A stretch of 64,000 nucleotides of DNA from Escherichia coli. GTDB taxonomy: Bacteria; Pseudomonadota; Gammaproteobacteria; Enterobacterales; Enterobacteriaceae. The position numbers and the translations under genes were made by a program. This document shows positions 33,842-38,600 of the stretch, piece after piece (the stretch's first letter is position 1; each line of letters opens with the position of its first letter). The stretch lies in NCBI RefSeq assembly GCF_041248615.1, contig NZ_CP158426.1. One strand, 5' to 3'. A model generated the notes under the pieces. That model made no database searches. It had not been told where the DNA came from and was given only the letters and a program-made list of their open reading frames with translations.

Positions 33842-34300
33842 TTATGCAATCATGCTGATGATCAACACGATTATCAGGCCAACCACGGAGTTTACCAGCT
33901 CCAGCAGACCCCAGGTTTTCAGCGTATCCTTCACCGACAGATCAAAGTAGCCTTTGAACAGCCAGAACGAAGCATCGTTGATATGGGTCAGCGTGTTGGA
34001 GCCAGCCGCTGTTGCCAGCACCAGCAACGCCGGGTCGACGCCCACCAGTTGACCGGTTGCCGGGTCGAGGATTGCTGCGCTAATAATCCTCGCCGCCGTC
34101 ATGGCTGAGACCACGCCCTGACCCGTTGCCAGACGGATCAGCACGGTTATCAACCACGCCATGATGTAGGGAGAAATATTGCCGTGTGACATCAGCATGC
34201 CGATGGTATCGCCGATGCCGGTATCGATAATGGTTTGCTTCAGTACGCCGCCTGCCACTGACTGCCGGAGCAGGGACTGCGCTGACTCTGTAAATCCGCC
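33842..34300 (-). pseudogene. GntP-family permease, C-terminal remnant only (about 150 aa)
   Basis: GntP-like C-terminal segments (IDTGIGD...[22 protein letters not shown]...); homology lost upstream of about 34300; the ORF continues spuriously into IS5. Confidence 0.5.
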
Positions 34301-34436
34301 GCTCTGTACGTTGGGATTGTTAATCCGAGTAACTAAGTAACACGCTATACCTTGACTCCTTATGCTTACATGCTTGCACATCGTTACGGCACAAAATTCA
34401 ACTGTGGCAAAGCAAGTGCGCTGTTGCGTTCTCTTG

Positions 34437-35632
34437 GGAAGGTGCGAACAAGTTCCTGATATGAGATCATCATATTCATCCGGAGCGCATCCCAGAGGGA
34501 CATCATGAGCCATCAACTCACCTTCGCCGATAGTGAATTCAGCACTAAGCGCCGTCAGACCCGAAAAGAGATTTTCCTCTCCCGCATGGAGCAGATTCTG
34601 CCATGGCAGAATATGACCGCTGTCATCGAGCCGTTTTATCCCAAGGCGGGCAATGGCCGACGGCCCTATCCGCTGGAGACCATGCTGCGTATTCACTGCA
34701 TGCAGCATTGGTACAACCTGAGCGACGGTGTCATGGAAGATGCCCTGTACGAAATCGCCTCCATGCGCCTGTTTGCCCGATTATCCCTGGATAGCGCCCT
34801 GCCGGACCGCACCACCATCATGAATTTCCGCCACCTGCTGGAGCAGCATCAACTGGCCCGCCAATTGTTCAAGACCATCAATCGCTGGCTGGCCGAAGCA
34901 GGCGTCATGATGACTCAAGGCACCTTGGTCGATGCCACCATCATTGAGGCACCCAGCTCGACCAAGAACAAAGAGCAGCAACGCGATCCGGAGATGCATC
35001 AGACCAAGAAAGGCAATCAGTGGCACTTTGGCATGAAGGCCCACATTGGTGTCGATGCCAAGAGTGGCCTGACCCACAGCCTGGTCACCACCGCGGCCAA
35101 CGAGCATGACCTCAATCAGCTGGGTAATCTGCTTCATGGAGAGGAGCAATTTGTCTCAGCCGATGCCGGCTACCAAGGAGCGCCACAGCGCGAGGAGCTG
35201 GCCGAGGTGGATGTGGACTGGCTGATCGCCGAGCGTCCCGGCAAGGTAAAAACCTTGAAGCAGAATCCGCGCAAGAACAAAACGGCCATCAACATCGAAT
35301 ACATGAAAGCCAGCATCCGTGCCAGGGTGGAGCACCCGTTTCGCATCATCAAGCGGCAGTTCGGCTTCGTGAAAGCCAGATACAAGGGGCTGCTGAAAAA
35401 CGATAACCAACTGGCGATGTTATTCACCCTGGCCAACCTGTTTCGGGTGGACCAAATGATACGTCAGTGGGAGAGATCTCAGTAAAAACCGGAAATAACG
35501 CCAGAAATGGTGGAAAAAATAGCCTAAATAGGCCGATTCGATGTGTTTGCGGGAAAAAAATCGGCCCAGATCCGCGAAATTTTAATCAGCGAGTCAGCTT
35601 GGGAAGAAATGACCTGCTTATTCGCACCTTCC
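34437..35632 (+). mobile_element. IS5 (1196 bp)
   Basis: Terminal inverted repeats GGAAGGTGCGAACAAG ... CTTATTCGCACCTTCC; internal transposase gene. Confidence 0.9.
34505..35485 (+). CDS. IS5 transposase (InsH-like)
   Basis: 326 aa [37 protein letters not shown]... Confidence 0.9.
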
Positions 35633-38600
35633 CTAAATCTTTCCACCCACCCCCTTAAATTTTTCAATAAATGCGCTAATTTTTTGAAAAACAGTCTGTT
35701 TTTTCGTTTTATATTGCGGATTTAAAGGACTGAGTCTGGGCAGTGTCTCGTTTAATTCCGTGCCATTTTCGGTGGCGTATTCGCGTTTTAAAGATGTGCG
35801 AATATAGCGTTTCGCCGCCTCTTCATTGAGATTTTCTTCTTTGATCAAGGCTTCTGCTTCACGTTGCTGTTCGCGTTGAGCAAACGTAAAGAATGCGTCA
35901 ATGATGCTGGCTTTGTCCGGTAAATCATCCAGGTTCGTTTGCTGAATAAAATCGACCACCAGGCCCTCTTTAGCACGGTTCCCCAGGCTTGAACGAATTA
36001 AGCGTTTGACCTCTTCGATCATTTCGCTCTTACCTTTGTTTTGTCTGTTGTGCTCGAAAATCAGACCAAGGATATAATCCAGGTTTATTTCCTGAGATTT
36101 CAGCAAATCGACCTCAAAAACTACGTCATCCCAGTCAGTGGTTGATTTCTCTTTTTTCTCAGCTTCTTTCTCACGGCGCTGCCAGTCGCGAATATCGTTA
36201 TAGGCAGAACGATAATCCTGAATCTTGCGATCAGCAGGGAGACGAATTGTTTGCAATTCAGCGAGCTTTTCATCATCCACATAATGTTCTGCTTTGAATT
36301 TTTCTACTGCAACAGGATCGCTAAGATCGATTTGTTGCAGGGCTTTCAGCGTGGCAAATTCATCATAGTTTTGCAGGATGTTCTCGGCACGCAGGTATTC
36401 ACCAAACAGTTTAACGAAGTCTTTCTTCTCTTTTTCACTTTCAATACTGGCAGGGTCAGGGAACCGTTGTTCCAGTTCTGCAACTACTGCCATAAAGCCG
36501 CGCTTAGCTTCACCAGTAGCAGCATCAGTAAAGCCTTCCATATACTCTGCATAACTCTTTTCTAACACTACATTTTTGGTGTTTTTGTCACCAAACAGCG
36601 TTATGGCATCGATGGTTGAGCGTTCCAGATCGCGGAAAGTGACGATATTACCGAAGGTTTTAGTTGCATCATAAATACGGTTGGTGCGGGAAAATGCCTG
36701 CATCAGGCCGTGAAAACGCAAGTTTTTATCGACGAATAGCGTGTTCAATGTTGGAGCATCGAAACCGGTTAAAAACATCCCCACGACAATTAACAGATCG
36801 ATATCCTGATTTTTAACCCGTTGGGCTAAATCACGATAGTAGTTCTGAAAACCCTTACTGTCGGTGCTGAAGTTAGTTTTAAAATAGCTGTTATACTCAC
36901 GAATTGCAGCGTCAAGAAACTCTTTAGCACTGCTGTCCATTGCGCTGGTATCAAAAGTTTCATCGGATATTTCACCAATCGCATTTTGTTCTTCATTAGC
37001 GGCAAAGGAGAAGATTGTCGCAACACGCAGTGGTTTACAGGTAGTAGATTTATTAGCGGCTTCCTCTTGTAACCGTTTAAACGTCGCGTAATAGGCTTTC
37101 GCGGCATCCACGCTGCTTACTGCCAGCATGGCATTAAAACCTTTGGAGCCAGGGAAAGTACGGTGGGTTTTCTGGCGGAAATTATTCAGAATATATTGCG
37201 TGATTTCCTGAATACGCATGGGATGAAGAAACGCCTGCTGATTTTCAGCCGCACTTAGTTTTTTCTCGTCAGTTTCTGTCTCTAAAGACTTAAACTGTGG
37301 TCGCACATCGTTGTAGTCCACCTTGAATTTGAGCACTTTTTCGTCACGAATCGCATCGGTAATTACATACGAATGCAATTCACGACCAAATACGCTGGCG
37401 GTTGTTTCTGAGCCTAAGGCGTTTTCCGGGAAAATAGGGGTGCCGGTAAAACCAAACTGATAATAGCGTTTGAATTTCTTCTTCAGGTTTTTCTGCGCTT
37501 CTCCAAACTGGCTGCGGTGGCATTCATCAAATATAAACACCACTTGCTGATTATATACAGGCAGGTCGCTTTCTGCTTTCATCAGGTTATTGAGTTTCTG
37601 AATAGTAGTGACGATAATTTTGTTATCGTCCTTATCCAGATTTCGTTTAAGGCCTGCGGTATTTTCCGAGCCGTTGACGCTGTCTGGCGAAAAACGCTGA
37701 TATTCCTTCATGGTCTGGTAATCGAGGTCTTTCCTGTCGACCACAAAGAAGACTTTATCAATAAAGTCCAGCTCTGTTGCCAGACGCGCGGCTTTAAAGC
37801 TGGTGAGGGTTTTACCAGAACCGGTAGTGTGCCAGATATACCCACCGCTTTCCGGTTTTGACCAGTTCTTCGCTGTAAAGGAACTCTTAATTTTCCACAG
37901 AATGCGCTCGGTGGCGGCAATCTGGTACGGTCGCATCACCAGTAGCGTCTGACTACTGTCAAAAACGCTGTAGTTCACCAGAACATTCAGCAGAGTATGT
38001 TTCTGGAAAAAGGTAGCGGTAAAGTCTTTGAGGTCTTTAATCAGCGTGTTGTCTGATTTCGCCCAGTTCATGGTGAAGTCAAAACTGTTTTTATCGCGCT
38101 TTGTTGTGTTGGCAAAATAACGGGTATCGGTGCCGTTAGAAATGACAAACAGTTGCAGATACTTAAACAGAGAATTTTCGCTGTTAAAACTCTCTTTGCT
38201 GTAACGGTGTATCTGGTTGAACGCTTCACGAATCGCCACGCCGCGCTTTTTCAGTTCGATTTGCACCAGCGGCAAGCCATTAACCAGGATCGTGACGTCA
38301 TAACGGTTAGCGTGAGAGCCTGCCTGTTCAAACTGCTGGATAATCTGCACTTTATTGCGCATGAGATTCTTTTTATCTATCAAATAGATGTTCTCAAGAC
38401 GCCCGTCGTCAAAAATAAAGTCGCAGATGTAGTCGATATGAATTTTACGGGTTTTATCCAGGATGCCATCGCTCGGATTATCCAGAAACTGCTCCGTGAA
38501 ACGCCGCCACTCGCTGTCATTAAACACCACACCATTGAGGTTCTGAAGCTGTTCCCGAACGTTGGCCAGCATCGCTGACTGTGATTTTACGGGTATAAAT

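Follow-up and report, generated by a model that had tools for sequence, protein, structure and literature searches.

Within the 64-kb stretch of Escherichia coli DNA analysed here (the window), a single insertion sequence lies between a lactate module followed by gene remnants and a type I restriction-modification operon. The element, an ISKpn26 of the IS5 family, occupies 34437..35632 on the plus strand, its limits set by an inverted-repeat search in which the terminal 16-bp repeat of ISKpn26 (GGAAGGTGCGAAYAAG) gave two exact, inverted matches, at 34437 and 35632. The left repeat (IRL, GGAAGGTGCGAACAAG, 34437..34452) and the right repeat (IRR, the reverse complement of GGAAGGTGCGAATAAG, 35617..35632) are each an exact end of ISKpn26; these are the only matches in the window, against 0.1 expected by chance, which indicates a single copy. 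One DDE transposase gene (34505..35485) matches the IS5-family profile NF033581 at 364 bits (cut-off 140), and also DDE_Tnp_1 (PF01609) and DUF772 (PF05598). Our identification rests on the RefSeq name, 'IS5-like element ISKpn26 family', and on the length of 1196 bp, which is that published for ISKpn26 (PMC8023600); the element had been called IS5 in an earlier reading made from the sequence alone (the sequence-only reading), a name that holds for the family and not for IS5 proper.

Directly past IRR lies the 3' end of hsdR (35633..38749, minus strand), an intact ORF of 1038 codons for an EcoR124-type (type IC-like) restriction subunit. Its profile matches are all full (HSDR_N, SWI2_SNF2/ResIII, a T1R_D3-like domain and EcoR124_C, positions 1-260 of 260), and it scores 762 bits against TIGR00348. 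The ORF list and RefSeq annotation place hsdS (38871..40064, minus strand) and hsdM (40061..41617, minus strand) beside it, completing the type I operon (38871..41617), and it is the whole domain set in one intact ORF, together with these neighbours, that makes this an EcoR124 (type IC-like) HsdR. The ISKpn26 transposase gene is convergent with hsdR. Across the IS/hsdR junction runs a 63-codon ORF (35467..35658, plus strand) that RefSeq annotates as a hypothetical protein at IS-adjacent hsdR loci and not at IS-free ones; it is probably an annotation artefact made by the fusion.

Remnants to the left of the element

On the other side, the lldP-dld-lutABC lactate module ends with lutC/ykgG (33097..33792, plus strand; RefSeq annotation of NZ_LT599825.1). 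The module is always on the IRL side of ISKpn26, lying to its left in strain 2452 (L011) and in three further loci (L004, L005, L006). Next comes a gntP pseudogene (33842..34258, minus strand) that keeps the C-terminal 137 codons and the stop and lacks the N-terminal ~310 codons: it covers positions 309-440 of 440 in PF02447 and, where a full-length GntP permease has about 440-450 residues, only 310-446 of 447 in NF007459. RefSeq lists it as 'incomplete, missing N-terminus', and the similarity of the window DNA to K-12 gntP (83%) stops at 34255. The sequence-only reading had put the remnant at about 150 codons and the break roughly 130 bp from the IS; the profile match gives 137 codons, and homology stops at ~34255-34258, 178-181 bp away. 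An intact gntP in another frame can be ruled out, as 181 bp lie between remnant and IS where ~930 bp would be needed.

These 181 bp begin within a 78-bp 3' fragment of an Inovirus-Gp2-type gene (34244..34321, minus strand), identical at 72 of 78 positions to a segment inside an annotated Gp2-type CDS elsewhere (L014, 2989-3066). The fragment overlaps the end of the gntP homology by about 12 bp, possibly a microhomology junction. The remaining 115 bp (34322..34436) are orphan DNA, with the non-canonical flank CTTG as the last four bases; they are confined to the 86 genomes with the left IS junction, and a 22-mer from them, searched for in 100,044 species-representative genomes, gave no exact hit. 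When an uninterrupted version of this flank was sought, the 181-bp segment was found, in E. coli, only beside ISKpn26. The truncation of gntP is a separate, older junction, in which the remnant was fused to the Gp2 fragment, and was not caused by the IS.

A one-sided target at the hsdR stop codon

The window copy of ISKpn26 has no 4-bp YTAR direct repeat around it: CTTG precedes IRL (34433..34436) and CTAA directly follows the right end (35633..35636), as the sequence-only reading had described and as we found on re-reading the sequence. CTAA, a native IS5-type target (YTAR), is present once, and its first three bases are the complement of the hsdR TAG stop, the 1038-codon minus-strand ORF ending there as had been proposed. 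The same reading had named an identical repeat as a possible refutation of the one-sided CTAA, and re-inspection gave none. ISKpn26 normally makes a 4-bp direct repeat (PMC8023600); since such a repeat belongs to the act of insertion and not to the element, its absence indicates a secondary rearrangement. IS copies without a target-site duplication arise by adjacent deletion or by recombination between IS copies, and IS903, of the IS5 family, makes adjacent deletions (PMC11708052).

Comparison with IS-free relatives, a check suggested beforehand, proved informative. Two IS-free hsdR loci (L002, L003) read ...CCTTTTGTTACTA-CTAA-ATCTTTCC, so that CTAA is native to the end of hsdR, and both continue past it into a conserved trailer of ~150 bp. 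This trailer is missing from the window, where ISKpn26 and unrelated DNA stand in its place, and a simple insertion is thereby ruled out. One might still suppose that the IS inserted simply and that its left target copy decayed from CTAA to CTTG by point mutation, as CTTG differs from CTAA at two bases and from CTAG at one. What lies left of the IS, however, is made up of the gntP, Gp2 and orphan remnants and has no relation to the hsdR trailer. Set against L002, L003 and L011, a decayed duplication is refuted, the native trailer being absent here, and we give it practically no chance. Read from the sequence, hsdR has kept its coding sequence and stop codon and had its 3' trailer swapped for the IS. 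A scan of the native trailer found no terminator-like site, and inside the IS it returned weak matches only, without enrichment.

An undeleted relative

The same island, with the same junction of gntP remnant...CTTG and IS, occurs in strain 2452 and in 10 other complete E. coli genomes. In genomes of this type (L011, L016, L017), 3813 bp separate IRR from the hsdR CTAA and contain a porin gene, fragments of IS3 and IS30, IS1B and the hsdR trailer. Strain 2452 is collinear with the window at 99.93% identity over 13.3 kb, through the IS and CTAA. Relatives sharing the left junction keep the DNA that is missing here, the loss ends exactly at the IS end, and the newly formed junction falls on a canonical target, the CTAA native to the hsdR stop, in single copy, as in an adjacent deletion. 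We hold with slightly more belief than doubt that the junction is a deletion scar produced by one-step intramolecular transposition. The missing target duplication is itself explained by an IS-mediated rearrangement, in all likelihood this 3.8-kb deletion, through which the lactate module came to adjoin the hsdR stop codon.

ISKpn26 would already have been resident in the ileX-side genomic island, its IRL anchored to the gntP/Gp2/orphan remnant (CTTG), with about 3.8 kb (the porin gene, the IS3 and IS30 fragments, IS1B and the 150-bp trailer) originally between IRR and hsdR. Intramolecular (replicative) transposition of the element into the hsdR CTAA, by analogy with IS903, would have joined IRR to the target overlapping the stop codon, the DNA in between being lost. 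Such a one-step route would leave the old left junction intact, place a YTAR beside the moving end, make no direct repeat and need no second IS. Both the mechanism and the polarity, with the 2452 type ancestral, are what we infer from the comparison.

Past its first 200 bp, hsdR of the 2452 type is only 96% identical to that of the window, against 99.93% on the left side, so no sampled genome is a direct ancestor. Yet hsdR alleles are mosaic in all pairs compared and differ by 2-4% between almost all of them, which makes an allele mismatch weak evidence, and allele identity was dropped as an uninformative marker of ancestry.

Half-junctions across complete genomes

Of 5426 complete genomes, 86 have the left half-junction and 211 the right one (IS/CTAA-hsdR), and in 34 the two are contiguous; either half is also found with several different partners. 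No variation is seen in the left junction across its 86 carriers, while the IRR side varies, always starting with YTAR: CTAA-hsdR, CTAA-porin, CTAA-etk', TTAG-MBOAT or TTAG-dms. Together with the IS-free trailer and the 2452-type interval, these separately paired halves support the earlier proposal that the IS mediated an adjacent deletion or fused unrelated segments. Most of the 211 genomes with IS/CTAA-hsdR have other left partners (IS66', hsdM', truncated IS), and the right junction may therefore have formed elsewhere and been imported.

In such an import, an IS/CTAA-hsdR half made ready in another island or lineage would have recombined homologously with the gntP-IS half, through a crossover in ISKpn26 and another in the hsdRSM/GTPase module, bringing together segments of separate history and replacing the interval from porin to trailer simultaneously. 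We think this unlikely, if a serious contender. The contrast between a left flank 99.93% identical to strain 2452 and an hsdR only 96% identical speaks for it, as does the near-identity of the window hsdR, over about 2.4 kb, to an IS66'-flanked allele (L010; 4 mismatches in the first 2.5 kb). So do the counts themselves (211 genomes with the right half, only 34 with both contiguous), the identical junction in two window-type genomes whose lut flank is 2.8% diverged (L022, L023), mosaic or chimeric IS copies, and an integration at this very ISKpn26, in LR4, through IS-IS recombination. But import would only shift the place where the one-sided junction arose: a deletion-type event is still needed, since no junction of trailer and IS occurs anywhere in the 5426 genomes. 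Later exchange starting from the window type could equally have produced the other left partners, and with hsdR alleles 2-4% apart in essentially all lineages the mismatch weighs little.

The deletion could also have taken two steps, a second ISKpn26 inserting at the hsdR CTAA in direct orientation and duplicating it, and RecA-dependent recombination then removing one IS together with the 3.8 kb. This would end in exactly the observed arrangement, IS-IS homologous recombination is active at the locus and a common cause of missing target-site duplications (PMC11708052), and sites 524 and 529, the two at which the window and 2452-type elements disagree, could be the trace of a crossover. The expected intermediate is nevertheless missing: the junction of trailer-CTAA with IRL (k-mer TTTTGTTACTACTAAGGAAGGTGCGAAC) was found in 0 of 5426 complete genomes, though 211 carry the derived junction. 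The reverse-complement junction of IRR with TTAG-trailer (k-mer GCACCTTCCTTAGTAGTAACAAAAGG) likewise gave 0 of 5426, in a search that could miss IS5 proper with its diverged right end; a two-copy intermediate with native trailer beside a second IS is thus absent from these genomes in either orientation. IS-internal SNPs are unreliable besides, as haplotypes differ among genomes with identical junctions, and we consider the two-step route improbable. The comparison separates only in part the one-step deletion, the two-step route and the import of a junction formed elsewhere.

Exchange between IS copies

Judged from the genomes compared, homologous exchange at this ISKpn26 is demonstrably frequent, which counts against the one-step deletion, as do the two sites at which the window IS departs from the 2452 type. 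Strain G3/10 has an ISKpn26/IS5 chimera at the locus, and in L022 and L023 the junction is that of the window beside a diverged lut flank. Internal IS haplotypes vary between genomes with identical junctions, in some cases being very different, which indicates gene conversion; the use of IS-internal SNPs to separate adjacent deletion from an IS-IS crossover was dropped for this reason. In LR4 two ISKpn26 copies at the same site enclose a DMSO-reductase-like dms operon with the edges TTAG...TTAG, an arrangement of the composite-transposon or translocatable-unit kind; the window, with its one IS copy, does not have it.

In 6 genomes the element is reversed and the hsdR CTAA abuts IRL, likewise without the trailer, which marks CTAA as a recurrent one-sided target; in all, it meets IRR in 211 genomes and IRL in 6, with the native trailer opposite in none. 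Tentatively, and with slightly more doubt than we attach to import, the hsdR-stop CTAA may be read as a site that ISKpn26 joins repeatedly, in either orientation and always on one side only, and at which the IS would serve as a portable homology cassette that swaps modules.

Relation to known systems

The window junction is an ordinary, routine IS-mediated rearrangement of a well-known type. As in adjacent deletions by IS903 of the IS5 family, by IS1 and by IS150 in the Lenski lines, one IS junction is unchanged and the other sits at a newly acquired canonical target, the target is not duplicated, and IS-contiguous DNA is lost that a relative keeps; unlike in those systems, the event here is natural and fixed, deduced from comparative genomics, and the undeleted relatives carry a diverged hsdR allele. 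With IS-IS homologous recombination of the kind that resembles IS26 translocatable units it shares half-junctions re-assorted among genomes, the G3/10 chimera and the dms insertion of LR4, but the window holds one IS copy and no two-copy intermediate was found for the interval from porin to trailer. Simple ISKpn26 insertions in acrR or mgrB of Klebsiella pneumoniae have the same 1196 bp, 16-bp inverted repeats and YTAR-type target at the IRR side; they carry 4-bp direct repeats and interrupt a gene, whereas hsdR is intact in the window.

The analysis is of use mainly to annotators and in tracing the history of the island: it accounts for the missing direct repeat, and shows that hsdR is intact beside the IS and that the gntP fragment is old and unrelated to it. 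If the cassette reading is true, ISKpn26 would function much as an IS26 translocatable-unit hub does, between E. coli genomic islands, the modules swapped being lactate utilisation, a porin, a DMSO-reductase-like operon and type I restriction-modification with the CP4-like module. More widely, the locus shows a single IS5-family copy acting as a breakpoint at which modules of E. coli genomic islands are deleted and exchanged.

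The island and its IS element

The junction of the IS and hsdR sits within a ~48-kb genomic island that, in the RefSeq annotation, runs from a tyrosine integrase beside nfeF (2950..4266) to a tRNA-Ile beside mug-rpoD (51124..51199; window positions are those of NZ_LT599825.1, the E. coli NRZ14408 chromosome, minus 768000). The gene order around it, with the junction's features already annotated in RefSeq, is lldP-dld-lutABC, a gntP pseudogene, the IS, hsdR-hsdS-hsdM on the minus strand, and a CP4-like block containing a GTPase gene, Ag43 and cbtA. The integrase is located not beside the tRNA-Ile but at the island's far end, and the CP4-like block (DUF4942 gene) adjoins the 3' side of the tRNA. 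Elsewhere in the island, an IS3-family element (23272..26761) harbours a group II intron (ltrA, 24684..26192) and adjoins an IS1414 fragment (22425..23222), an arrangement also present in strain 2452.

The IS, named ISKpn26 by RefSeq, is 1196 bp long and ends in exact inverted repeats, IRL (34437..34452) and IRR (35617..35632), the sole two matches in an inverted-repeat search of the whole window; a profile search identifies its product as a 326-residue IS5-family DDE transposase (NF033581, 364 bits). ISKpn26 is reported as a 1196-bp element with 4-bp direct repeats (PMC8023600). Here the flanks are CTTG on the left (34433..34436) and CTAA on the right (35633..35636), so a direct repeat is absent, just as the sequence-only reading had it. 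That reading also correctly placed CTAA over the hsdR stop: read on the opposite strand, its CTA is the TAG that closes a 1038-codon open reading frame, whose complete EcoR124-type HsdR domain set in profile searches indicates that hsdR is intact.

A probable deletion relative to a known arrangement

Comparison with relatives lacking the IS, which the sequence-only reading had proposed, recovers the native neighbour of CTAA. Two such loci (L002 and L003) read ...CCTTTTGTTACTA-CTAA-ATCTTTCC at the hsdR end, which makes CTAA native to hsdR, and the stop is followed by a conserved trailer of ~150 bp, with IS1 just beyond it in several relatives. This trailer, the DNA expected to the left of CTAA, is missing from the window; read against these loci, the junction is not a simple IS insertion, and insertion with a decayed repeat is effectively excluded. 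EcoR124-type hsdR alleles are strongly mosaic, with blockwise differences of 2-4% in almost all genomes compared (35633..38749 against L002, L003 and L007-L011). The 200 bp beside the stop show no differences in any comparison locus but L003, which has 4 mismatches there.

Strain 2452 carries the same island, 99.93% identical to the window over 13.3 kb that end with the IS and its CTAA, and then holds 3813 bp absent from the window (porin, IS3', IS30', IS1B and the hsdR trailer) before continuing with CTAA-hsdR-hsdS-hsdM-GTPase, an arrangement common to 11 genomes. Since these keep the 3813 bp, the window reads as the deleted form, in which the IRR end of the resident IS is joined to CTAA at the hsdR stop; the earlier suspicion of an IS-mediated adjacent deletion or segment fusion is thereby supported.

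The gntP-family gene was rightly described as truncated to its C-terminal part, which by profile comprises 137 codons (positions 310-446 of 447) and not about 150, and its homology ends at ~34255-34258, 178-181 bp from the IS where ~130 bp had been estimated. A 78-bp 3'-end fragment of an inovirus-Gp2-type gene (34244..34321; 92% identical to locus L014) overlaps that end by ~12 bp (34244..34258; TACGCCGCCTGC), which would fit illegitimate joining through microhomology, with gntP already truncated by the time of the IS events; the 115 bp from there to the IS are orphan DNA. This order of segments makes the gntP truncation an older, separate junction, not one caused by the IS. On a plasmid (NZ_JBTLHG010000003.1, L013 8490..9381) a lutC' fragment is accompanied by a gntP remnant that is 95.5% identical, is cut at another point (382 bp), adjoins IS26 and is followed by higBA, so that the lutC-gntP' remnant moves in other mobile contexts too.

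Half-junctions and exchange between IS copies

Among 5426 complete E. coli genomes, the left half-junction (gntP'...CTTG-IRL) occurs in 86, always joined to the IS, and the right (IRR-CTAA-hsdR) in 211, always chromosomal; 34 have both contiguously. Where the left half is constant, the partners at IRR are hsdR, a porin gene or truncated etk (flank CTAA) and an MBOAT gene or dms-like operon (TTAG). Where the right half is constant, IRL faces gntP' (CTTG), truncated IS66 (CTAA) or truncated hsdM (TTAG); alternatively, the IS is itself a truncated copy. CTTG is the sole exception among flanks that are otherwise canonical YTAR targets. In 6 genomes the hsdR CTAA is joined to IRL, opposite to the window and again without the trailer, which indicates that this site was used independently. 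In these (L019/L025, NZ_CP034787.1; junction at ~404/405 of L019) the hsdR stop (TTAG) abuts IRL and the porin gene lies on the IRR side.

Relatives also record exchange between IS copies. In strain LR4 (NZ_CM188749.1 686500-698500, locus positions 1789..9555) two direct ISKpn26 copies bracket a 5.4-kb DMSO/selenate-reductase-like (dms) operon, giving CTTG-IS-TTAG-dms operon-TTAG-IS-CTAA-hsdR. The two inner TTAGs match, which points to homologous IS-IS recombination having brought in a circle or translocatable unit that bore a single IS. In NZ_CM188745.1, too, the left junction falls at these coordinates, and the layout may be similar. At the same gntP' junction in G3/10 (NZ_CP060075.1, L005 7108..8302) the IS is a 1195-bp ISKpn26/IS5 chimera, joined to truncated etk beside appA, whose left ~600 bp match other ISKpn26 copies and whose right end is heavily diverged and IS5-like: direct evidence that ISKpn26 has recombined with another IS5-group copy. 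Left of the junction (1..1437, lutB/lutC flank), two window-type genomes (L022 and L023) show 40 mismatches to the window in 1437 positions, yet they are near-identical to it on the hsdR side, so the two flanks of the IS differ in recombination history.

Routes to the junction

Three routes yield the same product. We favour, with moderate confidence, a one-step adjacent deletion in situ by intramolecular transposition of the resident IS, because the trailer lies beside the IS in no genome in either orientation (trailer-CTAA-IRL and IRR-TTAG-trailer, reverse complement, each 0/5426) against 211 with the derived junction. That same absence makes improbable a two-step deletion, in which a second IS inserts at CTAA and the direct copies then recombine: its required intermediate is the trailer beside an IS. 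Moreover, CTAA is joined to both IRR and IRL, orientations that homologous recombination cannot interconvert, which argues for at least two independent transposition-type events, both one-sided.

Import of a pre-formed IS-hsdR junction, by crossovers in the IS and the restriction-modification module, is possible if rather doubtful, and its support is real. Past its first 200 bp, the 2452-type hsdR is only 96% identical to that of the window, which almost perfectly matches an IS66'-flanked copy over ~2.4 kb; window-type genomes with a 2.8%-diverged lut flank exist; and exchange at this IS is signalled by the G3/10 chimera, the LR4 structure and IS-internal haplotypes that vary among identical junctions. 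Yet hsdR alleles lie 2-4% apart in nearly all pairs compared, and gene conversion has scrambled the SNPs within the IS; neither marker tells the routes apart.

Consequences

The junction leaves the coding sequence and stop codon of hsdR unaltered; the trailer is replaced by IS DNA, with the transposase gene convergent with hsdR. Pattern scans for terminators drew a blank in the native trailer and showed no enrichment in the IS, and any regulatory effect on hsdR is speculative. A 63-codon open reading frame (35467..35658; hypothetical protein WP_306417990.1 in RefSeq) extends from the right end of the IS into the 3' end of hsdR. Among the inspected loci, this frame is annotated at IS-abutted but not at IS-free hsdR; it is probably a fusion artefact.

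Loss of the target-site direct repeat through adjacent deletion or IS-IS recombination is well documented. IS903, also of the IS5 family, is known to make adjacent deletions (PMC11708052), and the window case is an ordinary example built from known elements. Only two points are mildly notable: CTAA at the hsdR stop appears to be used recurrently, each time one-sidedly, and this IS copy appears to act as a hub for the re-assortment of island modules.
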